From: an uncultured Gammaproteobacteria bacterium
GTDB taxonomy: Bacteria; Patescibacteriota; Microgenomatia; JAMCZE01
Assembly: GCA_964641255.1 (NCBI GenBank)
Contig: CAZXMM010000001.1
Location: 79,757-143,756 of the forward strand
Length of the DNA stretch: 64,000 nucleotides
Direction of reading: 5' to 3'
Shown here: positions 13,065 to 63,617 of the stretch, piece after piece
How the letters are laid out: each line of letters starts with the position of its first letter
Numbering within the stretch: the stretch's first letter is position 1
Notes under the pieces: generated by a model
What the model was told of the DNA's origin: nothing
Database searches by the model: none
What the model saw: the letters and a program-made list of their open reading frames with translations, nothing else
Made by a program: the position numbers and the translations under genes

Positions 13065-15707
13065 TTACTTCCTTAAAAATTCTATTTCTAATATTTGGTC
13101 ACTACCAAGATCTGTATTATAGAGAACTCGCTGCGGGAAGACAAGCGCTCCCGCTACAATCCCAGTGGTGTCTCTCACTTTTCCAGCTCCGGCGATTTTC
13201 TTCCAATTTTGGGGGAACTCGACAGAAATATCGAGTGGGTCGGCACTCGTTCCCCCTTGCTTTAAAATTACCTGCCGGTAGGCGACACTCGCTTGTCTTT
13301 TAGTTATTGGCAGTGTCCACCGGTAAGTAAGTGTAATCTCTCGACTGCTTTTAATCGGAACTAGTACTAGCATGCCTACACTCAGATAAGAGTTGGTAGT
13401 TGATAGCGCTAGCGCCCCACTGGCCTCTACTGAAGTATGAACTAAAAATTTATCGGGTGGTACTTTGGCTAAAACATCTGCTGACAAAGTCGAAGAGATA
13501 GTCGCTGTTTTATCACCACTCATTGTTACCCCCGTTAGACGAGCCTTGGCTGGTAGCAAAAATCGCAGATAATTTTTATAATCGCCCGCTGGCCAGGCAA
13601 GAGATGGTGATTCGTTTTTCAAGTGGACCACGACCTTGGTCTCGGTGTCTCCACCCTCACCAATTGTAGTACTGACCCGCATTGCCCGTTTTACAAAATA
13701 ATTAGCTTTGTTGGCACCAAAATTAGCTTCCACTAGCATTAAACAGTTGGAGATGGCTGTACCACAAGAATGTCTGGTGATACTCCCCGACCAGCTGTTG
13801 GCTTCGACCCGCTCCTGGGCGGTACGATTATTGAAGAACAACATAATATGTTGTTCTCGTAGTCCCCGCTCTAGCGCTTGGGCAACTGCCAGATTGTTGA
13901 CTTTAGGGTCGTGAAGTAGGGTTTGGAGTAAGCTTTGTCCCACTGCTCCCAAATAATCACGTTTTTTGGTGGATCCCGGGAAAAAATTAATTTCTGAGGC
14001 GAACTCGGCTTTTTGAAAAAAATTTTCCGCTGTCACCTGATCGGCAAAATCCACCAGTGGTAGAGGTCCGGTTGCTCTAAGCAAATACTGAACCGCCTGA
14101 AGGTCGATCGCGATTACCCCATCCACCCTTTGTCCTGTTTCTTTTTCTAAAAAAAACTCCAATCGTTTAGCCGTTAGGGGAAAGTCTGGAGAAAAGTTTG
14201 CGTCTCTTAAAAACCAAGAGTTTTGTCCTAAAAAGTGAACAATCTCTGCCGGCGGGACCACTCGACCCTGAAGCTGACCATCGGCAGAATAGACATCATG
14301 GAAAACCAAATCTTTTACCACCCCCTCCTCTATTGTCAAAATAGCAAACGACCCAATAAATCCGCCGGTCGGTCTCAGCTCGGCACTGTTCTGAAAAACG
14401 AGCAAGTAGGTTCGACTTTGTTTAGTGGTCTTGAGATTGCCAGGGGACGAAATGGCTAGTAGTTCTGGTAAAACAGTTAAGATCCGGTCGGCAGAAATTA
14501 ATAATCCCCTAGCTCTAGCAATATCATCTGGGGCCCTAGTGACCAATTGAACCGGAAAACCAAGCCAGCTAAAAATACTACCCAGTGTTTGGATTTCGTT
14601 TGCTTTGAGCAAACCCTGGGCTAGTCCTAGTTCGTGATTAAGAGCCAGTAACTCTGGGTGTAAAGTCGCTACCTGCTGGGGTAACTCCTCCCGGTTATTT
14701 CCCGAAAAGATATCTCGAGCCAAATCAGTTACGTTCTTTTGCAGAATAGCCCCACGCTTAACTACTCCAGCTATCCGACTGCCCGACTCTCCAATCTCTA
14801 CAACTGGAGCTAAAATTGTTTGTCCCCATAGGCTAAGAGCCGAGACTTCCGTAGTGACAAACTTACCCCGAAGAAACACTCGTTCCGCCTCACCAGCTTG
14901 GTATGATGCTTGAAGAAATTCCCCCCGCCCTAAGGCGATCCGAGCCTGCAAAAGATGACTCACCCCACCACCATAAGCTAGCAGCGCCACTAAAAATGGA
15001 AGTACCAGAAAAAACACAGTCATTAGGAGCACCGCCCGCCAGCCAAGAACCAATCTGCGCCTGCCCCAATTGAAGCGATTTGGCTTTTGCTGACTAGCTC
15101 TAACGGACTTTTGACTTTTTTCCAAAGAAGCCATAACACTTTGGGTATTATGTAATCCTCGCAAGCGCAGGAAGGCTTCCCAACTTTCGGCCTGCTGACG
15201 ATTTCCTCCATAATGGTGCCCCGGACCCCCGCGAACCACAATAGTTTGTCTTTTCTTGGTCCACTGACCAAAACTAGCGTTGATACAGTCCTGTAAAAAG
15301 GCTTTGGGGGCGACAAGCACATTTTCGATTTCGCCAGCAAGGACCAGTGTCAAAACCTCGACCCGTTCGCCACTTGCCAACCTTAATAGTCGCTGCTCAA
15401 TTTCACTAGATAGACCGAGGCAGAGAAAAACAACCTTGGTTTTGCTACGCCTCGCTAGTGGCAAAACTTCTTGCCAAATTTTTGCTACCAAAGCGAGGCG
15501 ATCTTTAGGACTAACCAGCAGATAACAATAGTGGGGGGTCTCTAGAGCGTGCCATTTCTCGCTGGAATGCTCTAATAGTAGGGTACGTAACCCAGAAGCT
15601 TTTAGCTGTTCATTAAGATTGTGGGCTAGAACTCCCTGTCCAACAATTACCGCTAGGGGGTGCTTTTCATCGCGCTCAAAACGGATTGTTGGCTGGGCAG
15701 ACTGCAT
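13065..15707 (-). CDS. DUF4012 domain protein (880 aa): cytoplasmic N-domain, TM helix, large extracytoplasmic DUF4012 region
   Basis: YLLVFQNSAELRPTGGFIGSFAIL carries the hallmark ELRPTGGFIGS motif of DUF4012. One TM segment (LMTVFFLVLPFLVALLAYGG). Confidence 0.65.
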   Translation of the reverse strand: MQSAQPTIRFERDEKHPLAVIVGQGVLAHNLNEQLKASGLRTLLLEHSSEKWHALETPHYCYLLVSPKDRLALVAKIWQEVLPLARRSKTKVVFLCLGLSSEIEQRLLRLASGERVEVLTLVLAGEIENVLVAPKAFLQDCINASFGQWTKKRQTIVVRGGPGHHYGGNRQQAESWEAFLRLRGLHNTQSVMASLEKSQKSVRASQQKPNRFNWGRRRLVLGWRAVLLMTVFFLVLPFLVALLAYGGGVSHLLQARIALGRGEFLQASYQAGEAERVFLRGKFVTTEVSALSLWGQTILAPVVEIGESGSRIAGVVKRGAILQKNVTDLARDIFSGNNREELPQQVATLHPELLALNHELGLAQGLLKANEIQTLGSIFSWLGFPVQLVTRAPDDIARARGLLISADRILTVLPELLAISSPGNLKTTKQSRTYLLVFQNSAELRPTGGFIGSFAILTIEEGVVKDLVFHDVYSADGQLQGRVVPPAEIVHFLGQNSWFLRDANFSPDFPLTAKRLEFFLEKETGQRVDGVIAIDLQAVQYLLRATGPLPLVDFADQVTAENFFQKAEFASEINFFPGSTKKRDYLGAVGQSLLQTLLHDPKVNNLAVAQALERGLREQHIMLFFNNRTAQERVEANSWSGSITRHSCGTAISNCLMLVEANFGANKANYFVKRAMRVSTTIGEGGDTETKVVVHLKNESPSLAWPAGDYKNYLRFLLPAKARLTGVTMSGDKTATISSTLSADVLAKVPPDKFLVHTSVEASGALALSTTNSYLSVGMLVLVPIKSSREITLTYRWTLPITKRQASVAYRQVILKQGGTSADPLDISVEFPQNWKKIAGAGKVRDTTGIVAGALVFPQRVLYNTDLGSDQILEIEFLRK

Positions 15708-20907: not shown

Positions 20908-23070
20908 TCACTTTAGGCTCTCCAGCTCTGTAGCTAAGGCCTGAAAGAGGTTTTTATAAAAACGTAGTGCTCGATAATCACTGCTGCTACGAATCAATCC
21001 GCCAAAAAGCCGAGAAATACTCTCGGGCATATTACGATTATCTGTTCGCGCTAGCCCAGACTCACACACCTCAACAAATTCCGGTAGAATACTTGCTACC
21101 CAACTTTGGTTTCCGTCTAAAAAACCCCTTAGCCCGGGGCTAAGGGTAGACATTAGACGGTCTCGTGCTTCTTTTACTGGGTACAGTTGTTCTAGTCGTT
21201 TTGCCACGTTTTGGGGTATTTCTATAGCCAAATTGGGCTGGGCTAGAATTCGATTTCGCGTCACCGCGAGGGGGATTCTGGGATAAATCATGTTATCTAG
21301 TTGGTCATTAATGTCCCTCTTTCGCTTGGTCCCCCATAATACCGCTAGTTTTCGATGCAGCTCACTCAAGATCTCTTTTTGTTGGACTCCCCCCAGAGTG
21401 CCGAGTGCAATCTTAGCTAATGCTAATTGAAACTCCCCATTGCTTAGGTCCTCTCCACCCCAAGCCACTGCACCATCAGTAAAAAAATTACTTATCTGTT
21501 TTTTTGATTTTGGAGTTAATAACCCCCAGACCCTCAAAGCCTCGGCTTCCCAATTAGTGGTAGCCAGTAGTCGCTCGGTAAAAGGGTGGTCTGCATCGGT
21601 TATAACTAGTGAGGTACGAAGGGTACTTTTGTTAAAGGCGGATACCCCAATATTTCCCGAACTGGGTAATTCCTCAAGCGTCACTAGTCCATGGTCTGGC
21701 CCCACCGCGTCAGCAAGTCTAGTTGAACCGGCACCTAAAGTCACAAAATCTGCAATGGTTTGCTGGGTTTCCTGAGAAATTTCACCAACACGAACTTCCA
21801 GCTGGGCCACCTGATTAGGATCCTCGCCCAACTGCTTATCGGTAAGAACCACTAGGTCGGTCCTAGCTTCGTCAGGCTTGATTAATACAATTTCATCCCT
21901 CTGCATTACTTCTTTAACCTTTTTCTCACCTTCCTGAATCAAAATTTGGGTTATTGTTGTAGCCCGAAGTCTATTTCTGGCATTAAATCTGGCTACCAGT
22001 TCCGACTCTTGATCTGCCCTGTCTTGACCGCCTAGGTTAAAATCATTCTCTCCGGTTCGCAATCGCTCGGAAATTTGAGAGTCTAACGCTCGCAGCAACT
22101 CTTGAAAGTCCTCCTCGACGCCACCAACGTGTTCGGGTATAAAATTTCTCGCTAACCACATCGGGTCGGCCCCAAGCTCCCAAAGCATTGCCAACCGATC
22201 GGTTATTTGCTGGGCCGCAAACTGGGGATCAATTTTTCCGCCCAAACAATCAATCACATCAGAATGATTGGCTAGTGAGTGAGCAATTGTTTGATTGATT
22301 TCTCTGGATATGTAGCTCGTACCGGCATAGGCAAGCGCTTCAATATAGAGCGTGGCTGCATTGTTTTCATGAAGTTTCTTCAGCGGTGCCTCTTTAGCTG
22401 CTAAAGATCTTTGGTAAAAATAATTAATTGCAGCTCCAGCCAAAGACCACCCTCCCAGAGTCACAAGCGCATAGGCTAGTCTCAGTACAGGATTGGCATT
22501 TTGTCGCATCCACCATTTAGCAGCGTTTTCAAGCACCAGTGTAGCCTCTGCAGTATCTGCTGCCTGACCAAGATGGACTTGTTCGTGAAACAATGTGTCA
22601 ATATCTTCCCCGGGGACTAATCTTCGAAACCAATCTTTTAGTCCTAAATTGTCCAGCTGCGTTGAAACTAAAATAACATTGTTCCACCAATCAGCTAAAC
22701 CAAGCGCAGAAGCCCCGTCGCTTTTTCTTTGAATTAAGCCTTTCTTTGTTTCAACCCTTGGTCCGTCACCGCCGAGATTAGCCGCCTTAATTGATAAGGC
22801 AAATGGATCAAAGCCCAACCAGTTAACTTCCAAATCCGTCTTTTGCCCAACAGCCTGCACCACCTGGTCGTGTAGCCCTATCCAATCATCAGAACCGAGC
22901 CGGTCAATAACTGCATAATAGGGAGAGAAGTGGATGAGTTTGTCATTAGTTTCTGCCTCCAATCTAGAGGCGACCTCACTTAACCGATCCGCGTTTATAG
23001 AATGGGAGGTCAACTCCTCACCTTCCGCGTCTGCACCCACTTCATAATCACCAATTTTTTCATCAGCCAT
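20908..23070 (-). CDS. large hypothetical protein (720 aa) with one HExxH motif, located between rpmH and dnaA
   Basis: Long clean ORF. Acidic N-terminus, FHEQVHLGQ (HExxH), no TM helix or signal peptide, no other recognisable domain. Confidence 0.5.
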   Translation of the reverse strand: MADEKIGDYEVGADAEGEELTSHSINADRLSEVASRLEAETNDKLIHFSPYYAVIDRLGSDDWIGLHDQVVQAVGQKTDLEVNWLGFDPFALSIKAANLGGDGPRVETKKGLIQRKSDGASALGLADWWNNVILVSTQLDNLGLKDWFRRLVPGEDIDTLFHEQVHLGQAADTAEATLVLENAAKWWMRQNANPVLRLAYALVTLGGWSLAGAAINYFYQRSLAAKEAPLKKLHENNAATLYIEALAYAGTSYISREINQTIAHSLANHSDVIDCLGGKIDPQFAAQQITDRLAMLWELGADPMWLARNFIPEHVGGVEEDFQELLRALDSQISERLRTGENDFNLGGQDRADQESELVARFNARNRLRATTITQILIQEGEKKVKEVMQRDEIVLIKPDEARTDLVVLTDKQLGEDPNQVAQLEVRVGEISQETQQTIADFVTLGAGSTRLADAVGPDHGLVTLEELPSSGNIGVSAFNKSTLRTSLVITDADHPFTERLLATTNWEAEALRVWGLLTPKSKKQISNFFTDGAVAWGGEDLSNGEFQLALAKIALGTLGGVQQKEILSELHRKLAVLWGTKRKRDINDQLDNMIYPRIPLAVTRNRILAQPNLAIEIPQNVAKRLEQLYPVKEARDRLMSTLSPGLRGFLDGNQSWVASILPEFVEVCESGLARTDNRNMPESISRLFGGLIRSSSDYRALRFYKNLFQALATELESLK

Positions 23071-23165: not shown

Positions 23166-23174
23166 TGTGGATAA
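23166..23174 (-). promoter_or_regulatory. DnaA box (TTATCCACA on the minus strand) in the dnaA promoter region
   Basis: Perfect 9-mer tgtggataa, 21 nt upstream of the dnaA ATG. Consistent with DnaA autoregulation. Confidence 0.5.
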
Positions 23175-24604: not shown

Positions 24605-24622
24605 TATCCTTTTGACCTTTCC

Positions 24623-24860
24623 TGGGGATTACCTGTGCATAAATTATTCATCGTTGGGGATATGTGAACAATTTTTGGTGACTATCAACATATCCCCATT
24701 TTAGGTCAATTTATCCCCAAAATTATCCACAATAGTCTCTCCAAGTTATCCACAACGAAAACTACCCATATGTTAGGGCCGTCAACAAGCCGCAATTCAA
24801 ATCTCTACACAAATCCCCACTGCCTACTACTATTACTACTAATAAGAAACTACTAAACCT
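24623..24860. promoter_or_regulatory. candidate oriC: DnaA-box cluster plus an AT-rich unwinding element between dnaA and dnaN
   Basis: Two perfect TTATCCACA boxes (24723-24731, 24746-24754), TTATCCCCA (24711-24719) and a TATCCCCA partial (24691-24698). On the opposite strand, TAATCCCCA (24623-24631) and ATATCCCCA (24655-24663). An AT-rich tract follows (actactattactactaataagaaactactaaa, about 24820-24860). Confidence 0.55.
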
Positions 24861-24913
24861 TCGGTTGCAAATAACCTTGTAAGACAATAAGATGTGACTA
24901 CTTTGTAATCGTT

Positions 24914-26070: not shown

Positions 26071-26856
26071 ATGGATGTCTTAACCTCGACCAATAACCCC
26101 CTCGTTAAACGCATTAAAAAGCTGTTACTTGATCGGGTATATCGCTATGAAGAGGGAGCCTTTTGGTGTGATGGGGTGAATTTCGTTAGTCAGGCAATTG
26201 ATAATGGTTGGGAAATAGACACTCTTGTGTTTGTTCCCCAAAAAATAGACAGCGACTTTAAAAGAGCGGTTTGGACTAAGGCGTTGGGTGTCAAAAAAGT
26301 AGCTGTTTCTGAATCTGTCTACCAGGCACTCTCGAGTAAAAAAGACATTCAAGGTGTGGGGGCGATTATTAAGATGAAAACGGGCGACACTCTTGAGCGG
26401 GGATTAGGAGTAGTTCTTGAACATCTCCAAACACCCGGTAATCTCGGTACCATTATGCGAACTTGTTTGGCGTTTGATATTAAATGCCTCTATCTTATTG
26501 CTCCAAGTGTAGATCCCTTTAATCCCGATACGGTAAGGGCATCAATGGGGGCGCTGTTTGGATTAAAAATTGTAGTGATTGCTGACTTTGCAGGTTTTGC
26601 CAGTCAAATTAAGAAGAACCTGCGTTACTGCATCGGTACCTCACTTCAGGAAGCAACGCTCCTGTCTAATTACTCAAGACAGCTAGAGGGAACGGAACTT
26701 ATTTGGTTTGGTAATGAGGCCAAGGGACTATCAATAGAAGCTAGGCGGTTATGCCAGGATAGTCTTAAAGTGCCGATTAGTCCCATAGTAGATTCTTTAA
26801 ACGTTGCCGAGTGTGCCGCCATCATTCTTTACACCCTGCTCCACGGGAGTAGATGA
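26071..26856 (+). CDS. SpoU/TrmH-family RNA 2'-O-methyltransferase
   Basis: LEHLQTPGNLGTIMRTCLAFD ... VDPFNPDTVRASMGALF ... LNVAECAAIILY are SPOUT class motifs. The 3' end overlaps the convergent VirB4-like gene by 60 nt. Confidence 0.8.
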   Translation: MDVLTSTNNPLVKRIKKLLLDRVYRYEEGAFWCDGVNFVSQAIDNGWEIDTLVFVPQKIDSDFKRAVWTKALGVKKVAVSESVYQALSSKKDIQGVGAIIKMKTGDTLERGLGVVLEHLQTPGNLGTIMRTCLAFDIKCLYLIAPSVDPFNPDTVRASMGALFGLKIVVIADFAGFASQIKKNLRYCIGTSLQEATLLSNYSRQLEGTELIWFGNEAKGLSIEARRLCQDSLKVPISPIVDSLNVAECAAIILYTLLHGSR

Positions 26857-28872
26857 CGACGCCGCAGTAGGCGTAGTATCGACCTGTGCGGAGGGGGTGG
26901 GGCCATCTGGATTAATCATTGGTACTTCGGGATTATTGTCTACACTCGCTTCGGAAGCGGCCCGCTCTGCCGCTTCTCTTTTTTGAGCTAAGTCACGAGG
27001 ATTAGTACTGATAAGATTGTACTCTTCTGGCGAAGCAACAACTCGCATGGCAACGTGGGAGGATCCGGCAAAAAATAGTCCTTCGCCAACGTTTGAGGAG
27101 AGGAGAAGGCTTTTCTCTCCCTCGGATAGATAAAATACCTCTGAAACTTTATCAATCGCCGCGGGAGACTGTTTCATTAAAATTTGAATCGAGCTATTAG
27201 TCACCACAGTTTTACCAAGGTCTGTTGCCAAAAAGTCCTCGATATCTTGGGTAATCGTTGTCAGGCCAAGATAATATTTTCTGGCTCGCTTGGCAAAGTT
27301 CCATAAGAATTCAGCTGAGGCTTGGTTTTTCATCAGGTACCAGGCCTCATCCACGATTAGGATACGCCGATGTAAATCTTTCTTAACGGAGTTCCATACA
27401 AAGTCCATGATGATAAAGATAGCGAGACTTCTTAATTGGTCCTCGAGATTCTTAAACGAGAAGACTGTAAAGGGGTTATTAAGTTGTAGGTTGCTTCGTT
27501 GATTAAAAATTGTGCCAAAGCTTCCTTTGACGAATTTTTCGAGACGCAGAGCAATATTTTGGGCTTTTTCTGTTTCCATTCCCACCAAAACTTTATAGAA
27601 GTCTTCCAAAATTGGCGGTTCCTTGCTGTGGGTTTTTATATCATAGGTGATTCCCTTTTCGTGATAGGTAAGCTCTAGGGCGTTATGGATAATGGCGTCT
27701 TCCTCGGCCGTAGTGTCACCGACCATGATTTTAATAAGTCGCGTGAGAGTGAAGCCAATTTTATATTGCAAGTCATTTTCTTGGGGATCGTCGTTGGTAC
27801 CAGCCAAATCAAAGGGGTTGATATGGGTATTACTACTAAAGGAGAAAGAAATATAATCACCACCCACTGATCTGGCTAGAGTTTCGTACTCTTCTTCCGG
27901 ATCAATAATGATGACTCTCGTGTCAAACATTAAGGCTCGCAGGGCTTCGAGTTTCACTAAGAAACTTTTCCCTCCGCCGGATTTACCCAAAACTACTTCG
28001 TTAGCATTTTCCAGACTAAAACGGTCGAAGATGATGAGTGACTCATTATGTTCATTGATACCGTAGAGCACCCCCTCATTAGCTGTCAGCTCTGAGGAGG
28101 TAAAAGGAAAGGTAGTGGCAAGGGAAGTAGTGTCCATGTTCCGGGTGATCATGAGATTGTCCTGACAAAGGGGCTGGGTAGTTTTAAAGCCGTCCTCCAT
28201 TTGCAGAGTGGCCTTTTTGCCATTAAGAAGGAGTGATCCTAGAGTAGAGGCTACTTGCTTACTGATTTGGTCGAGGTCGGCTACTGAAGTAGCTGAAATA
28301 GTGAAGTAGAGACCAAACTGAAAGAACCGCTCCGCTCCTTTAGCTAATTGTTCCTGCAAAGCCAGGGCATCGTCTAGAGCTACTTGAACACCAGGATCAA
28401 TGACTCGTCCCCGTTTAATATCACTTTCGATGGTCGCTTCCATCTCGGCAATTTTTCGTTTTAGGTCGGACAAAATATCCCGAGATTCAACTGGATAGAT
28501 AAACATGCCAATATCAATCGAGGAGTCAAAATCAATAATGGGGTCTAACCAGTTGGCAGCAACAAAGCGGGGATAGCCAGCGATAAAAAGTGTTCTTAGA
28601 TAAGTATCACCTATTTTGATGTGGTCAAAGTCCACCTCGATCTTTTCTGGAGCGATTAAGTCTACAACCGACTCAAAAGCTTCACTTGGTTTCATAGTGG
28701 CAGGATCTGGTTTCGTAGTGACCAAAGACGCGTCACTCGTAGGAATCCCAGCGATGGGTTCCCACTCGGGTTCGGCTTTTGGGACATCGCTAACTTTTGC
28801 TCGCCCTGGTTTTGCTAAATCGGCAGCAATTTTAGCAACCGGTGCTTTCTTTTTTAAAAAGGGTAGATTCAT
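26797..28872 (-). CDS. VirB4/TraC/TrbE-family T4SS ATPase, middle and ATPase domains
   Basis: GYPRFVAANWLDPII (VirB4 middle-domain motif), Walker A LGKSGGGKSFLV and Walker B RILIVDEAWYLM. A low-complexity Pro/Thr/Ser C-terminal tail follows. Confidence 0.8.
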   Translation of the reverse strand: MNLPFLKKKAPVAKIAADLAKPGRAKVSDVPKAEPEWEPIAGIPTSDASLVTTKPDPATMKPSEAFESVVDLIAPEKIEVDFDHIKIGDTYLRTLFIAGYPRFVAANWLDPIIDFDSSIDIGMFIYPVESRDILSDLKRKIAEMEATIESDIKRGRVIDPGVQVALDDALALQEQLAKGAERFFQFGLYFTISATSVADLDQISKQVASTLGSLLLNGKKATLQMEDGFKTTQPLCQDNLMITRNMDTTSLATTFPFTSSELTANEGVLYGINEHNESLIIFDRFSLENANEVVLGKSGGGKSFLVKLEALRALMFDTRVIIIDPEEEYETLARSVGGDYISFSFSSNTHINPFDLAGTNDDPQENDLQYKIGFTLTRLIKIMVGDTTAEEDAIIHNALELTYHEKGITYDIKTHSKEPPILEDFYKVLVGMETEKAQNIALRLEKFVKGSFGTIFNQRSNLQLNNPFTVFSFKNLEDQLRSLAIFIIMDFVWNSVKKDLHRRILIVDEAWYLMKNQASAEFLWNFAKRARKYYLGLTTITQDIEDFLATDLGKTVVTNSSIQILMKQSPAAIDKVSEVFYLSEGEKSLLLSSNVGEGLFFAGSSHVAMRVVASPEEYNLISTNPRDLAQKREAAERAASEASVDNNPEVPMINPDGPTPSAQVDTTPTAASSSTPVEQGVKNDGGTLGNV

Positions 28873-28879
28873 ATTATTG

Positions 28880-29563
28880 CTATGACGCGGTACTGTTACT
28901 ATTACTTGTCTTCGTAGTCACGGGGGGTGGGGTAGGACTAGCAGCGGTGCGGTGATTGTAGATATCATGAAACAGGTCGATTAATTCCACAGTAGTTAGT
29001 TGTCTAGCCCGAAGCCCCAGTCGTCCGAGCTGTCTTAAAATATGATCCCGCTTGGGTAGTAGTGCGGTTTTAGCTTTTTCGACAATAGTTTCGGCCGGGA
29101 GTGGAAGACCGGTCGTTTTTTTCTTAAATAGTCCGCCGGCGCTGGAAGCCACCCCAAGCTCCAAAAAGCTAAAAGGAATGGCAATGTAAAATTTTTTATC
29201 GAGCACGTTGTTATTTTTTACTGTATTTGCAATGAAATCGCGATATTTTGCGATCTGATCAGCCAGGAGAGGATTTTTTTGTTTTTCTCGAGCCTCTTCA
29301 AGGAGAGCCATATAGGCTGAAACATCCTTTTGTTGGCTACGTACCACAATTTGAATGGAAAAATTGAGCGAGTTTAATAGACCAGCGTAAGCGTAGATAA
29401 TCGACTCCTGTTCTTGTTCTGACAGCAGGCCAAAATTAACCGCCGACACGGCAATTATTAGAGCCACCGAGCCGTCTTTGATGATAACCAGGTCGTCAAC
29501 AATATCCGCCACCTGCAGATGATCTTGTGTAGTTCCTTTAATAGCTATTTTAGTTACATCCAT
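28880..29563 (-). CDS. VirB4-family N-terminal domain, encoded as a separate 227-aa ORF
   Basis: TTQDHLQVADIVDDLVIIKDGSVALIIAVSAVNFGLLSEQEQESIIYAYAGLLNSLNFSIQIVVRS follows the conserved N-terminal pattern of Gram-positive-type VirB4 homologues (PrgJ/TcpF/ConE). Its stop at 28880-28882 lies 7 nt upstream of the ATPase ORF start at 28872, in a different frame. Confidence 0.6.
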   Translation of the reverse strand: MDVTKIAIKGTTQDHLQVADIVDDLVIIKDGSVALIIAVSAVNFGLLSEQEQESIIYAYAGLLNSLNFSIQIVVRSQQKDVSAYMALLEEAREKQKNPLLADQIAKYRDFIANTVKNNNVLDKKFYIAIPFSFLELGVASSAGGLFKKKTTGLPLPAETIVEKAKTALLPKRDHILRQLGRLGLRARQLTTVELIDLFHDIYNHRTAASPTPPPVTTKTSNSNSTAS

Positions 29564-29577
29564 ATGCGCTAGCGTTA

Positions 29578-30834
29578 CTAGGTTACCGCTATCTTGGGTT
29601 TGATTTCTAGTGGTGGCATGACCCCACCACTGAGAGTAATTTCCAACAGATCAAAATTAAAATTCTGTTTTTCCAGCTCTAAATAGTAGGTACCATTCTC
29701 TAGGGGAGTGCTCCCGATAAACTGGCCGACCTTGTTAGCTTTAAGTGCCCGAATCGAATTGCCGGCTTTGTCTTTGATGATAATGATGGTTCCGTCAATT
29801 GGGTTATTGTTTTGGTCGAGGACCACCCCGTTTATGACATTAGGTATTTCTGTAAGAGTGATGGGGGTAGGAGGCTTGATCACCTTATCGACTACCCGAA
29901 TCTGAGGTGGGCGGCGTTCAATAACTGGCATTTGATAGGCAGTAGTAGTTAGTGGGGCAACTCGCTGGCTGGTAATTTGCGACCGAAGGTTGGTTATTTG
30001 GCTGCTCAGTTTGCTCTTTTCTAGAGTCAAGGCGTCTAATTTTTCTTGCTCTCGGGGCGATAGTTTACCTACCAAAACCAGACTGTTTTTAAGCTCGTCA
30101 ATTTGCATCATCAGCGCCTTGCTTTGGTTGACAAGCTCGTCAACTAGCGCCTCGTTCTTAGTCAGTTCTGAGGCGTTCTTCTCGAGTTTTTCCGCCGAGG
30201 TGGCACGACGTCTTGCCTCCAAAGCGTCAATTGTCACCACCTCCTTAGGGGGAATGTTGTCCTTTGGCTCATTTAATTTTTCCTGACGGATTTTTTCTAG
30301 GGCATCGATAGACACAATGGTTTGTCTCGACAAGTCCTCTTGAACCGGTGGGGTTACTGGGGTGGTATCAGTAAGAGGTAGGGTCGTGCGGTTGGCCATT
30401 AATTGTTGTACGTTGATTTCTCCACCACCCTCAGGTGGTTTTGGGGCGCTAGTGTTTTGTGGTTGGGCCATAGTAATCGGTGTAAAGTTTAATTGCGGGG
30501 CGCTGGGTAATGATTTTTTTTCAGTTGGAGCTGCTGTTTTGGAACCTTGTCGTTTCCAAATATAGACAGTTGGTTTATAGATAGCTCTAAAAAAATTAAC
30601 CAACCAAATGTCTAGTGGCCTTTCTTCGATGGGCAAAAAGGCCAGAGCGACCCCAAAGAGGGCAAAAAAGATGGCGAAGGGATACTTAAGAACCGGATGC
30701 CAATTGGCAATATAGAAAACATAAGCCAGTATGGCCCCACCAGCTAGTTCTCCAAACTGTTTGAGGGTCATGTCACCGACCAGTTTGAACTTAAATCCAG
30801 TAATGTCTTGGGGGACAGCGTGTTGTTCCATCAA
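29578..30834 (-). CDS. PrgI/VirB3-like T4SS membrane protein fused to a coiled coil and a C-terminal carboxypeptidase-regulatory-like beta-sandwich domain
   Basis: N-terminus VPQDITGFKFKLVGDMTLKQFGELAGGAILAYVFY resembles the PrgI family (VPKDIR.YE.KF.GPFT.K.F..IAGG). Next come two TM helices, a Pro/Thr linker, a roughly 150-aa heptad-rich coiled coil (ELKNSLVLVGKLSPREQEKLDALTLEKSKLSSQITNLRSQ), then NGVVLDQNNNPIDGTIIIIKDKAGNSIRALKANKVGQFIGSTPLENGTYYLELEKQNFNF. Confidence 0.55.
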   Translation of the reverse strand: MMEQHAVPQDITGFKFKLVGDMTLKQFGELAGGAILAYVFYIANWHPVLKYPFAIFFALFGVALAFLPIEERPLDIWLVNFFRAIYKPTVYIWKRQGSKTAAPTEKKSLPSAPQLNFTPITMAQPQNTSAPKPPEGGGEINVQQLMANRTTLPLTDTTPVTPPVQEDLSRQTIVSIDALEKIRQEKLNEPKDNIPPKEVVTIDALEARRRATSAEKLEKNASELTKNEALVDELVNQSKALMMQIDELKNSLVLVGKLSPREQEKLDALTLEKSKLSSQITNLRSQITSQRVAPLTTTAYQMPVIERRPPQIRVVDKVIKPPTPITLTEIPNVINGVVLDQNNNPIDGTIIIIKDKAGNSIRALKANKVGQFIGSTPLENGTYYLELEKQNFNFDLLEITLSGGVMPPLEIKPKIAVT

Positions 30835-30931
30835 TAATTACCCGAACGATGATTCTCCCTCAGGCGAAGAAATACAGTGGTCGGGCAGTACTAAAATATC
30901 GTTATTCTTAGACTATCCTAACAACCCAAAT

Positions 30932-31423
30932 ATGAAAAACAAGGGGCGGAGATTTTCACAAAGTAATATAATACCTTTATCGATGAACGAAGACTGTTTC
31001 CACCTGGGCGTAAAAGCGTTAATTAGGAACTTGTCTGGGAAGATCCTCCTGTTGAAGGTTAACCCGGCTCAGTTAAAAAATTATTCGGGGGAAGCCTATT
31101 GGGACATTCCAGGAGGCAGAGTCCAAAGAGGGGCGTCAGTGGAAGAAACTTTAAGACGCGAGGTTGAAGAAGAAACTGGGATTACCAACATTAAAGCCAC
31201 CAAACTCGTAGCTACCATACTTTCAAATATAAGGATTCCGGTACAAAACGGTGACGTGGGACTTCTCCTTTCTGTTTATAGTTGTCAGTTGAGCGAAGAG
31301 CCAAGTACAATTAGGTTAAGCGGCGAACACACTGAAGCGGGGTGGTTTTTCCCGAAAGAGGCGTCGGAGCTATTAAAAGTGAAATACCCCGAGGAGTTTA
31401 CCGATATGGTTGCCATTTTATAA
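30932..31423 (+). CDS. NUDIX hydrolase
   Basis: Nudix box GGRVQRGASVEETLRREVEEETGI (GX5EX7REUXEEXGU). The ORF-track start at 30731 was rejected because it overlaps the divergent PrgI-like gene. ATG 30932 is preferred, with ATG 30983 possible. Confidence 0.7.
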   Translation: MKNKGRRFSQSNIIPLSMNEDCFHLGVKALIRNLSGKILLLKVNPAQLKNYSGEAYWDIPGGRVQRGASVEETLRREVEEETGITNIKATKLVATILSNIRIPVQNGDVGLLLSVYSCQLSEEPSTIRLSGEHTEAGWFFPKEASELLKVKYPEEFTDMVAIL

Positions 31424-48369: not shown

Positions 48370-49683
48370 GTGAAAAAAATCAACACCATTTTTATTGCCA
48401 ATTTGTCAGAAATTTCTCTAAACCTGGTGCACTTTATGCATCCCCAGGAGGTCGAAGCGGAGATTTCCGAAGACCATGACTTGTGTGATCGCTTTCTTTT
48501 TTCCCTGCCAAATAATTCGTTACTCCTGACTCCCTATCTGCTGGATCAAGACTTTTTTACAGATAGCTGCACACTTCTGCGACTAAGAAATATTATTAAT
48601 TTGGCTCCCAAAACCATTGGTCAGTCCATTTGTGAGGCCATAAATGCCGATGCCGATCTTTTTGAAAAGTTAGTCGTAACCATTAAAAATAATCCGGGAG
48701 TGGCTATTGTCTCCTACGCTGCCACCAGTGAGTTTCTAGCGCTAGTGGAGCAGCTACGTAAAAGACAACTGGTGTTTACCACTCCCGAAGCTCCAAGTGC
48801 TCAGGGCCACTGGGTTTATGATTTTTTTGGTTCCAAGTGCGGCTTTCGTCAGGCTAAAATGCCGGCTCCCCCGGGGTTCATCTGTTCTAATAGAGAAGAA
48901 CTACTGGGTTGGAGCGAATATTTTTTAAAGGAAACTGCCGGGTGTGTCATTAAAACCAATCGGGGATTAGCTGGGGCTGGACTACGAATTATTAGAAAAA
49001 CCGAAGTCGGCAAAAGCCCACGGGAATTTGTGGCCCAGATTTTAGACTCTGAAAATTACTGGCAAGATTTCCCATTAGTAGTTGAAGAATTTCTCCCGCC
49101 TGATATCACAATATGTGGGGGGGCACCCAACATCGAGCTAAAGATACAAGGTGGTCGAGTGACTCCACTTTACGTATGCAGTATGCGAATCAGTAACGAG
49201 GGAGTATTTCAAGGAATCGAATTTGGCAAGGATAGTGTCCCGGTGATCATAGCCAGGCAACTGCGGGTCTTTGGTTTAGAATATGGGCAAATACTTAAGC
49301 AGTATAACTATCGGGGGTTCTTTGAAATGGACTTTGTCTGGACTAGGGGCCAAAGGCTAGTTCCTATAGAGAGTAACTTGCGTCGGACTGGTGGAACTCA
49401 CGCTTTCGAGTTAGCCAGGCGACTGTTAGGAAATGACTTTTATCGCCATTTTTATCTTACTACTAACAACCGTTCTCCGATCCCTGCTTTAAAAAAACTT
49501 TCCTATCATGAGGTGCGTTCTAGGGTTGCCCCCCTGCTGTTCCCAATCGCTACAAGCAAGACAGGGGTAGTTCTTACTGTAACTAAGGGTATTGGTCACG
49601 GGCGGCTGGGTTATGTCGTCATTGGCAAAACGCGGCAGCAAGCCCACCAAATAGAAACGGCGCTACTTAGCTTACTCACATGA
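48370..49683 (+). CDS. ATP-grasp fold enzyme (ligase), substrate unknown
   Basis: GCVIKTNRGLAGAGLRII (Lys/Gly-rich loop), VVEEFLPPD and GFFEMDFVWTRGQRLVPIESNLRRTGG (E-x-N-x-R, Mg-binding motif of ATP-grasp enzymes). Confidence 0.5.
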   Translation: MKKINTIFIANLSEISLNLVHFMHPQEVEAEISEDHDLCDRFLFSLPNNSLLLTPYLLDQDFFTDSCTLLRLRNIINLAPKTIGQSICEAINADADLFEKLVVTIKNNPGVAIVSYAATSEFLALVEQLRKRQLVFTTPEAPSAQGHWVYDFFGSKCGFRQAKMPAPPGFICSNREELLGWSEYFLKETAGCVIKTNRGLAGAGLRIIRKTEVGKSPREFVAQILDSENYWQDFPLVVEEFLPPDITICGGAPNIELKIQGGRVTPLYVCSMRISNEGVFQGIEFGKDSVPVIIARQLRVFGLEYGQILKQYNYRGFFEMDFVWTRGQRLVPIESNLRRTGGTHAFELARRLLGNDFYRHFYLTTNNRSPIPALKKLSYHEVRSRVAPLLFPIATSKTGVVLTVTKGIGHGRLGYVVIGKTRQQAHQIETALLSLLT

Positions 49684-50890
49684 ATTTAGCTTTTGCACTT
49701 CGTCCCCGAACTCTGGATGAATTTTTTGGACAAACCCACTTGGTGGGTCAGGGAAAGATTATTAACAGGCTAATTACTGGGGGACAACTCTTTTCAATGA
49801 TTTTGTGGGGGCCACCCGGAAGTGGAAAGACGACTTTAGCAAAAATAATTGTCCAGTCACTTAAGACTGAATTTTTTGAACTATCGGGTGTTACTGCTGG
49901 GAAAGAGGAATTGTTGAAAGTGATTGCTCTGGCTAAGGAAAATCAAAAACAGGGTAAATCCACTATTCTTTTCATCGATGAAATCCACCGCTGGAACAAG
50001 TCCCAACAAGATGCCCTTCTCCCTTATGTAGAAAATGGTCTACTCACTCTTATTGGCGCGACAACCGAAAACCCCTCGTTTGAAGTTATTAGTCCACTTC
50101 TTTCAAGAGCAGGGTATTTGTTTTAGAGGGGCTAGCCGCAAGAGACTTAGAAAGAATTATTGACCAGGCTCTAAGTGACAAAGAAAGGGGGCTGGGAAAA
50201 TTAAACAAAAAAATAAACCAAGCTGGAAAGGAGCTCATTGTTCGGCTCTCGGGTGGGGATGCCCGCATTGTTCTTAATGCTCTAGAGATGGCAGCGACTG
50301 CTTATGATGAGAAGGTGATTACAGAAGGCATCATTCAAGAGATTTTCCAGACAAAATCAGCTGGTCTTTACGACAAAAAAGCGGATGAGCATTACAATGT
50401 AATTTCTGCTTACATCAAAAGTGTTCGGGGATCTGATCCTGACGCCGCCCTCTACTATCTGGCCCGAATGTTGGCAAGCGGAGAAGACCCAAAGTTTATC
50501 GCCAGACGCATGATCATTCTGGCCTCCGAGGATATTGGTTTGGCTGATCGGGGGGCACTAATTCAGGCAAATGCGTGCTTTGAAGCGGTCAGTAAAATTG
50601 GTATGCCGGAAGCCCAACTTACTCTTGCCCACGGAACACTTTATTTGGCTACTGCCAAAAAATCCCGAGGGGTGGCTAACGCTCTGGAAAAAGCTAAAGA
50701 AGTGGTGGTGCAATTTCCCAGCGAACCTATCCCGCTTTTCCTGCGTAATGCCCCGACCAAGCTAATGAAAAATCTGGGTTATGGTAAGGAGTATCGTTGG
50801 GGAGAAGATTATGTAGGTCCCACGGTCAAACGGTCTTTTTTACCAGATAGGATAAAAGATAAGAAATTTTACGAAGAAGCATCCAAATAG
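49680..50890 (+). pseudogene. rarA: replication-associated recombination protein A (MgsA/RarA, AAA+), disrupted by a frameshift near 50110-50115
   Basis: ORF 49680..50126 holds Walker A GPPGSGKTTLAKI, Walker B ILFIDEIHRWNK and ends ...LLSRAGYLF*. The RarA consensus continues in the next frame from about 50104 (RVFVLEGLAARDLERIIDQAL ... GDARIVLNALE) into ORF 50288..50890. A missing A in gcagggtat relative to gcaAgggtat explains the break. Confidence 0.7.
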
Positions 50891-62666: not shown

Positions 62667-63617
62667 TTAACTAACTATATTTTTGGGATCCCCCCTAATA
62701 TATGACTCGATATTACCGATAATAATGTCCGGGAGGTTGTGAAGAGAATCGTTTGTTAACCAACCCAAATGAGGAGTCAAGACGACACTTGGGAGCTGTA
62801 AAAGGGGGTTTGTCCTTTCCCACTTTACGATAACATCCAGTCCCGCCCCAGCTATTTTTTTATCTTTCAAGACTTCATAAAGCGCTAATTCGTCAACCAC
62901 CCCTCCTCTAGACGTGTTAATTAATATTGCAGATGGTTTCATGAGCCCTAACAGTTCCTTAGAAATTAGTCCATTAGTCTCTTTGTTTAAAGCAAGGTTT
63001 ATTGAAATTACGTCGCTTAGCTTAAATAGATCTTTAAGATCCGCCGGTGTGACATCCTTAACCTTTTTATATTTTCTATCCCAGCCAACAACTTTCATGT
63101 CCAATCCATTTCCCATTTTGGCTACCCGCTGGCCTATAGCTCCTAATCCTATTACCCCCAAGGTCTTTCCCTGGAGATCAAAACCGCTGTAACTATTAAC
63201 GTGATCGGTATTGCCTGGATCGGTTTCAAAAGGGCGATCGCGCATAGCGGAGTTTCCTAGGGGGATCTTTCTGTTGACCGCAAAGATTAAACCAATGGCC
63301 AATTCGGCTACTGACTGGGTAGCAAATCCGGGAACATTAGATACCACAATTGACTTATTTTTTGCTGCAACCAAGTCAATGCCATTATAGCCGGTGCTGT
63401 TAAGACTGATGAACTTTAAATTCTTGGTCGATTCCAAAACCCTTTGTCCAAGCGGAGCTATAAAACAATCGACAATTGCAATGTCTGCGTTTTGTAATCT
63501 TTTGATCGCTGTTTCCTCGTCACTGGTATTATCAAAAACCTCAAGCTCACCCAGTGACCGGAGCTTAGAAATATGTGTTTCCGTCAGGAATGATTGATTG
63601 AGAACGACAATCTTCAT
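62667..63617 (-). CDS. D-isomer-specific 2-hydroxyacid dehydrogenase (glycerate/phosphoglycerate dehydrogenase-like)
   Basis: NAD-binding GKTLGVIGLGAIGQRVAKM. Catalytic region SRGGVVDE ... HLGWLT. Confidence 0.8.
   Translation of the reverse strand: MKIVVLNQSFLTETHISKLRSLGELEVFDNTSDEETAIKRLQNADIAIVDCFIAPLGQRVLESTKNLKFISLNSTGYNGIDLVAAKNKSIVVSNVPGFATQSVAELAIGLIFAVNRKIPLGNSAMRDRPFETDPGNTDHVNSYSGFDLQGKTLGVIGLGAIGQRVAKMGNGLDMKVVGWDRKYKKVKDVTPADLKDLFKLSDVISINLALNKETNGLISKELLGLMKPSAILINTSRGGVVDELALYEVLKDKKIAGAGLDVIVKWERTNPLLQLPSVVLTPHLGWLTNDSLHNLPDIIIGNIESYIRGDPKNIVS

Follow-up and report, generated by a model that had tools for sequence, protein, structure and literature searches.

Three adjacent minus-strand genes at 26797-30834 of a 64,000 nt stretch of contig CAZXMM010000001.1 (assembly GCA_964641255.1; hereafter the window) very probably encode the membrane-anchored ATPase core of a chromosomal type IV secretion system (T4SS) in a Microgenomatia genome, of the MPF-FATA-derived kind typical of Patescibacteria, which would not be conjugative and most likely serves macromolecule exchange or contact with a host. 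The genes encode a PrgI/VirB3-like membrane protein, a small protein of the TrsD/TraD family and a VirB4-family ATPase. The locus probably belongs to the already described Patescibacteria-clade T4SS, which most of these ultrasmall bacteria have beside the replication origin. Its interpretation as a chromosomal system other than an integrative and conjugative element (ICE), perhaps with a role in uptake or in contact with a host, agrees with the published view (PMC12102498, PMC10633639) and is not new.

The PrgI, TrsD and VirB4 proteins

The window was analysed by mapping and translating its open reading frames (ORFs), and independent gene calls were compared with this map. The ORF map gives PrgI-like, TrsD and VirB4 proteins of 418, 227 and 691 aa, and the gene calls give 417, 227 and 691 aa; a TTG start yields the 418 aa form of the PrgI-like protein and the annotated ATG at 30831 the 417 aa form. 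The three genes are one operon, with intergenic gaps of just 14 nt (PrgI-like/TrsD) and 7 nt (TrsD/VirB4). The same three proteins are present on an NCBI contig of 950,062 bp and on Logan contigs from SRR14932608 and SRR14932609. The operon and its parts are as follows, each with the evidence on which the assignment is based where one is recorded.

29578..30834, minus strand: PrgI/VirB3-like membrane protein, greatly extended at the C-terminus (PF12666, homologues, AlphaFold2 (AF2) model)
30571..30816, minus strand: PrgI domain, starting with a conserved motif, followed by a predicted membrane hairpin of two helices (residues ~23-41 and ~46-65) and by one more helix, which is amphipathic (72-97) (PF12666, alignment, AF2)
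29947..30231, minus strand: PrgI extension, long hairpin forming an antiparallel coiled coil (AF2 helices 201-254 and 259-295, pLDDT >90)
29602..29832, minus strand: C-terminal transthyretin/CnaB-like beta-sandwich (CarboxypepD_reg-like)
28880..29563, minus strand: protein of the TrsD/TraD family (227 aa), similar to the very N-terminal end of VirB4
26797..28872, minus strand: VirB4-family ATPase, 691 aa, N- and C-terminal tails disordered (NF045971, PF19044, 4AG5)
27964..27987, minus strand: Walker A motif GKSGGGKS, VirB4 residue 296 (translation; xKxGxGKS kept in relatives)
27340..27357, minus strand: Walker B motif IVDEAW, VirB4 residue 506 (translation; hhDEAW kept in relatives)

The 691 aa protein scores above the cutoffs of both NF045971, the VirB4-like CD1110 family (393.7 bits against 325), and PF19044 (115.6 bits against 25.8), and its residues 286-620 align with 4AG5, a VirB4 ATPase domain of known structure, with an E value of 4.9e-45. 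The CD1110 family, the best-scoring among the curated ones, is that of the VirB4 proteins of CTn2-type ICEs in Clostridioides difficile; here, by contrast, the first N-terminal part lies on TrsD and there is no ICE context. A preliminary description made from the sequence had reported three co-oriented minus-strand genes at these positions and the motifs GYPRFV, GKSGGGKS and IVDEAW in the ATPase, and had proposed searches with VirB4 ATPase models. The ORF map and the independent gene calls agree with the gene positions, all three motifs are found on the translation (GYPRFV at residue 99, 28561-28578) and are kept in relatives, and the model searches were run with the above-cutoff results just given.

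A full N-terminal domain is not found on the VirB4 polypeptide, where the NF045971 match begins at model position 186. The predicted N-terminal domain is split, with its first part carried by the separate TrsD protein, since the hidden Markov model (HMM) alignments of the two proteins tile NF045971, TrsD covering positions 4-117 and the 691 aa protein positions 186-735. The 227 aa protein also matches the N-terminal model positions of two VirB4 equivalogs (NCBIfam), and the best structural neighbour of its predicted model is TrwK/VirB4. It matches the TrsD/TraD model NF041427 with an E value of 7.6e-8 (32.4 bits against a cutoff of 200), and a precomputed match to PF26593 (TraC-like) is recorded for it and for all 120 listed homologues. 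Single-sequence and profile searches of the PDB returned no significant match, and PHROGs gave a weak terminase match only, which is probably spurious. With 2,347 stand-alone homologues, TrsD is a conserved stand-alone family and not a broken-off piece of virB4; a split of virB4 by frameshift or assembly error is rejected on this number and because TrsD has its own ORF in 57 of the 63 related loci. The earlier label of the middle gene as a VirB4 N-terminal domain thus stands as far as the resemblance goes, as evidenced by the HMM positions, and is refined by the assignment to this family.

The order VirB3-like protein, small VirB4-N-terminal-like protein, VirB4 ATPase is that of TrsC-TrsD-TrsE and TraC-TraD-TraE on the Gram-positive conjugative plasmids pGO1 and pIP501. 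The TrsD/TraD model of these MPF-FATA systems matches the middle protein here. They are, however, plasmid-borne, with a relaxase, a type IV coupling protein (T4CP), oriT, further Tra genes and a short VirB3-like protein, whereas the present operon is chromosomal, lies at the probable replication origin (oriC) and has no DNA-processing genes. The VirB3-VirB4 pair of R388/Agrobacterium (PDB 7O41) belongs to a diderm system with an outer-membrane core complex, VirB11 and VirD4, and its sequence identity to the proteins studied here is very low.

In the PF12666 search that had also been proposed, residues 7-88 of the PrgI-like protein score 28.6 bits against a gathering score of 27, and the Pfam scan gave a sub-threshold match to CarboxypepD_reg near its C-terminus. 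It has 483 homologues; among the 120 listed, many carry PF12666 and/or PF13620. A typical PrgI/VirB3 protein has ~90-120 aa, whereas this one has 418 aa, its PrgI domain being followed by a coiled coil and a beta-sandwich. Residues at its N-terminus are invariant over 44 aligned homologues, and in an AF2 model built on this 44-sequence alignment (mean predicted local distance difference test, pLDDT, 76) the helices at residues 23-41 and 46-65 are predicted at pLDDT >90; a simple hydropathy scan finds only the second of them strongly hydrophobic in most homologues. In the model a disordered Pro/Thr/Ala-rich stretch (residues 98-170) precedes the coiled-coil hairpin, and the beta-sandwich is modelled confidently at residues 334-410. 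This coiled coil plus transthyretin/CnaB-like module is conserved and is not evidently covered by the literature searched; the main text of the survey by Quinonero-Coronel et al. 2025 (PMC12102498) does not mention such an extension. Only 22.6% of the Microgenomatia VirB3 hits were VirB4-associated in that survey, whereas here the gene for the PrgI fusion is adjacent in most of the loci examined.

Chromosomal setting and conservation in relatives

The operon diverges from a NUDIX gene and converges on a SpoU methyltransferase gene with dnaN ~1 kb away, an arrangement already reported in the preliminary description and borne out by the gene map, on which the virB4 and dnaN stop codons are 738 nt apart. 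The virB4 and SpoU genes overlap by 60 nt. The SpoU side continues with dnaN, dnaA, a 720 aa orphan gene, rnpA, yidD, yidC and jag/KhpB, and the NUDIX side with Nramp, a PLD-like protein and an ABC/HlyD set. GC content stays level along the locus, at 0.44-0.46 over the whole window. The flanking features are:

30932-31423: NUDIX gene, divergent from the operon
30835..30931, no strand: divergent spacer between the PrgI-like and NUDIX genes, presumed promoter region of the operon (gene map)
26071-26856: SpoU methyltransferase gene, convergent on virB4
24605..24913, no strand: probable oriC in the dnaA-dnaN spacer; context, outside the machine (DnaA boxes, GC skew)

The dnaA-dnaN spacer is probably oriC, because its cluster of DnaA boxes (24634-24754; two perfect and two with one mismatch) coincides with the minimum of the cumulative GC skew at 24-26 kb. 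All three perfect DnaA boxes of the window lie beside dnaA, the third being upstream of that gene at 23166-23174. From the boxes and the skew minimum, the stop codon of virB4 would lie ~2 kb from oriC, and this placement is conserved across the class. Transcription of the operon points toward oriC, head-on to replication. A consensus scan for promoters and terminators gave counts not above those in shuffled sequence. A terminator-like hairpin on the plus strand at 26953-26977, with a 9-bp stem followed by a T-run, lies inside the part of the virB4 coding sequence that specifies the low-complexity C-terminal tail.

A search with VirB4 yielded 215 matches, 80 of which were retained (52-84% identity, species-level relatives). 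All retained relatives that have a specific Candidate Phyla Radiation (CPR) name in their title are Patescibacteria or Microgenomates, the names being Shapiro-, Gottesman-, Levy-, Chisholm-, Davies- and Woesebacteria and Microgenomates. The nearest relatives all appear to be Patescibacteria. Many of them (L001, L002, L004 and others) are metagenome-assembled genomes titled 'uncultured Gammaproteobacteria' or 'uncultured Pseudomonadales', and these titles look mislabelled because gene content and the nearest named relatives are clearly those of Patescibacteria/Microgenomates.

Synteny, a comparison that the preliminary description had likewise proposed, was examined by tblastn of the window proteins against the 80 loci, and the trio converging on dnaN recurs in most of them. 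Among the 63 loci with enough upstream sequence, 52 have PrgI, TrsD and VirB4 strictly adjacent and co-oriented, and several of the 11 failing this count have a longer PrgI extension that falls beyond the distance filter; TrsD adjoins VirB4 in 57. Of 48 loci, 46 have dnaN no more than 8 kb downstream, in convergent orientation in 43. Compared with four close relatives, nonsynonymous divergence (pN) is 0.11-0.16 for VirB4, 0.20-0.22 for TrsD and 0.33-0.36 for the PrgI fusion, against a saturated synonymous divergence (pS) of 0.77-0.90. On these sequence comparisons the operon is a conserved chromosomal feature under purifying selection, and not an island or a relic.

In 47 related loci the next gene after virB4 is co-oriented and codes for 250-1,400 aa, and ~21 of these 47 genes carry a peptidoglycan-hydrolase domain (Peptidase_M23 in 10, CHAP in 3, SLT in 2, and Amidase_3, M15_4, Glucosaminidase, M74, C39_2 and SLT_3 in one each). 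Peptidoglycan hydrolysis is the VirB1-type function. The post-virB4 gene looks like a VirB1 equivalent in which the C-terminal catalytic domain, of varying type, has been swapped repeatedly; in L018 (11761-14754) and L037 (11849-14278) the post-virB4 gene encodes a Gly/Ala-rich hydrophobic stretch. The window and its closest relatives, L001, L003, L005, L009 and L012, lack the post-virB4 gene, so that virB4 runs directly into dnaN or SpoU, and a T4CP lies beside the locus only in L037 and L032. Since the post-virB4 gene is absent here while 47 relatives have one, and a T4CP occurs in just two, the window represents the most reduced form of the Microgenomatia locus, namely a trio that lacks hydrolase, pilin and coupling-protein genes as neighbours. 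The literature does not evidently cover this hydrolase-less three-gene variant.

The Pfam scans took in essentially every window ORF of at least 110 aa, with precomputed Pfam assignments used for 62667-63617, for the ABC/FtsX pair and for genes up to 10 kb past each window end, ~84 kb in total. No T4CP, relaxase, integrase, VirB6 or VirB1 was detected by Pfam in the window or the 10-kb flanks. A small-ORF scan of the window revealed no VirB2-like array and no cluster of small pilin-like ORFs with two transmembrane (TM) helices, neither a relative's T4CP nor the downstream hydrolase proteins had a tblastn match there, and the window contains no tRNA genes or Rfam matches. The claim that the 64 kb hold no recognisable VirD4, relaxase, VirB6, VirB1 or integrase is upheld by these scans, and the terms 'stand-alone' and 'minimal' hold for the ~84 kb around the operon. 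It had been allowed that a relaxase and integrase just outside the window would make the module an ordinary conjugative element; none occurs in the 10 kb on either side. The proposal that the apparatus is chromosomal and derived from a T4SS, and is not a classical ICE, is supported by the setting among oriC and housekeeping genes, the flat GC content, the synteny, the lack of mobility genes and the purifying selection.

These observations agree with the survey of 3,035 Patescibacteria genomes by Quinonero-Coronel et al. 2025, in which VirB4 was found in 2,417 genomes, nearly all of it in one clade nested in MPF-FATA, with TrsD as its most abundant partner and PrgI/VirB3 homologues common (PMC12102498). 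In Microgenomatia and Paceibacteria, dnaA, dnaN and rnpA were among the commonest virB4 neighbours, and VirB4, TrsD and PrgI occurred without a relaxase near dnaA/dnaN; VirB6 was scarce and VirB2-like arrays were abundant in Microgenomatia (PMC12102498). The present locus shares with this clade its VirB4, the adjacent TrsD and PrgI/VirB3, the lack of a relaxase and the chromosomal position beside dnaA/dnaN in CPR, but unlike it has no VirB2-like pilin array, VirB6, VirB1-type hydrolase or T4CP at or near the locus.

Other features of the window and its relatives

The 720 aa ORF between dnaA and rpmH/rnpA (20908-23070, minus strand) is all but an orphan. Sequence searches of Pfam, NCBIfam, PHROG and PDB gave no match, and none of the 80 related loci has a homologue; among 5.8 billion protein clusters the ORF matches itself alone, and among 1.84 billion representatives it has a single remote relative (P0242; 27% identity, E value 4e-5), with which it has an HEQxH (HExxH-like) motif in common. 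The same dnaA-rnpA slot in the close relative L003 (14500-18100) seems, by eye, to contain an IS30-type transposase gene and genes for repeat-rich FG-GAP-like secreted proteins. This content of the L003 slot suggests that the site beside oriC is a variable insertion site in the lineage.

Elsewhere in the window, mgsA/rarA is split into an ORF for the AAA N-terminal part (49680-50126, plus strand) and an MgsA_C ORF (50288-50890, plus strand) with ~160 nt between them; the gene is probably a pseudogene that arose by frameshift, or else the assembly is in error here. The window gene at 1312-2079 gave no record on look-up. A DUF4012 protein of 880 aa (13065-15707, minus strand) adjoins polysaccharide-synthesis genes (Wzx-like and Wzy-like). 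DUF4012 proteins directly follow virB4 in 2 of the 47 related loci that have a post-virB4 gene.

Function, alternatives and significance

VirB3 is the two-TM anchor of the VirB4 hexamer (PMC12624023), and by homology of VirB3 and VirB4 to solved T4SSs the PrgI/VirB3-like hairpin would tether a hexameric VirB4 in the single cell membrane, with TrsD supplying the first part of the VirB4 N-terminal domain and so completing the hexamer. ATP hydrolysis by VirB4 would drive the assembly of, and/or transport through, an envelope-spanning structure, the other parts of which (VirB2-like pilins, a VirB6-like channel and a cell-wall hydrolase) may be encoded elsewhere or be too divergent to recognise. 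We posit that this is not a conjugation apparatus, because no relaxase or coupling protein is present, and that the machine most likely mediates macromolecule exchange or host-cell contact, judging from gene content and from its essentiality in Saccharibacteria. There, the Tn-seq study of Wang et al. 2023 showed the S. epibionticum T4SS cluster SEML1_0006-0019 to be essential for epibiotic growth; this system has no recognisable coupling and relaxase proteins, and protein export has been suggested for it (PMC10633639). Reviews discuss effector delivery or the import of host macromolecules (PMC11665869, PMC12857230).

Several points weigh against this interpretation. The PrgI and TrsD HMM scores are weak, the former only 1.6 bits over its threshold and the latter far under the NCBIfam cutoff, and membership in the Patescibacteria VirB4 clade is judged from the nearest relatives. 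The AF2 model and the hydropathy scan do not fix the topology of the PrgI C-terminal extension. The ~84 kb examined contain no channel, pilin or hydrolase partner, so that a complete machine is not demonstrated in this genome, and the function of such systems has been called 'completely unknown' even in cultivated model organisms (PMC11665869).

It is possible, although we would not expect it, that the T4SS core brings in DNA, RNA or other macromolecules from the host, in the manner of H. pylori ComB or archaeal Ced, and so feeds a cell unable to make nucleotides, an alternative which concerns the direction of transport and not the identity of the genes. Import has been speculated on for Patescibacteria (PMC12102498, PMC11665869, bioRxiv 10.64898/2026.06.21.733656), VirB4 has weak sub-threshold matches to the archaeal DNA-import ATPases CedB (E value 9.4e-14) and CedD (21.6 bits against a cutoff of 600), and the relaxase or T4CP that DNA export would involve was not found in the window. 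The CedB equivalog score of 50.9 bits against a cutoff of 700, however, means that VirB4 is not a Ced orthologue, the window holds no ComB- or Ced-specific partner, and protein export has been suggested instead for S. epibionticum (PMC10633639); transport direction and substrate are in any case not readable from sequence.

We consider it improbable that the trio is a stand-alone membrane ATPase module, outside any canonical T4SS channel, which serves type IV pili or some other envelope machine that is not a T4SS, as might be argued from the lack of any other T4SS component in ~84 kb, from the scarcity of VirB6 in Microgenomatia (PMC12102498) and from the existence elsewhere of VirB4 hybrids with type IV pili or type VII secretion systems (PMC12857230). 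The absence of partners may instead reflect divergence or a distant location, relatives keep a hydrolase and occasionally a T4CP beside the trio as in true T4SS loci, and VirB2-like arrays are abundant in the class (PMC12102498).

Very improbable is a decaying, non-functional T4SS remnant left by the loss of the downstream hydrolase and other genes. The co-oriented post-virB4 gene of 47 other loci (~21 of them hydrolases) is indeed missing from the window and its closest relatives, and no pilin or VirB6 gene is nearby, yet the ORFs are intact, the same three-gene form recurs in the distinct species L001, L003, L005, L009 and L012, and the remnant is rejected on the conservation of the intact Walker motifs and on strong purifying selection, with pN well below the saturated pS.

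That the module sits within an ordinary ICE or integrated plasmid, its relaxase and integrase just out of view, recalls the homology of VirB4, TrsD and PrgI to TrsC-TrsD-TrsE/PrgI-PrgJ of Gram-positive conjugative plasmids and ICEs and the T4CP adjoining the locus in L037 and L032, but is ruled out for practical purposes by the lack of a relaxase, T4CP, integrase, tRNA or GC anomaly in the 64 kb and the 10 kb on each side, by the location between dnaN/SpoU and NUDIX/Nramp at oriC with the same neighbours over many species, and by the rarity of relaxases in Patescibacteria (just 103 of 3,035 genomes; PMC12102498).

For the non-conjugative, host-directed T4SS core that we favour, the conserved PrgI extension is a candidate contact or receptor element. 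We suggest with low confidence that the fused module of disordered linker, coiled-coil hairpin and beta-sandwich is a lineage-specific functional part of the machine in Microgenomatia, with an extracellular or a cytoplasmic role. Exposed on the cell exterior, it might act as a stalk or adhesin in place of the absent VirB8 or surface adhesin; in the cytoplasm, where the canonical VirB3 topology would put it, it might act as a substrate receptor in place of the absent coupling protein. Either role, if true, would be a new way to build the inner-membrane complex of a T4SS.

The window adds no new type of system; it shows the Microgenomatia form at its most reduced, cleanly and on one contiguous stretch. 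Patescibacteria account for much of bacterial diversity and are apparently host-dependent, and the oriC-proximal T4SS is among the few machines shown to be essential for their lifestyle.

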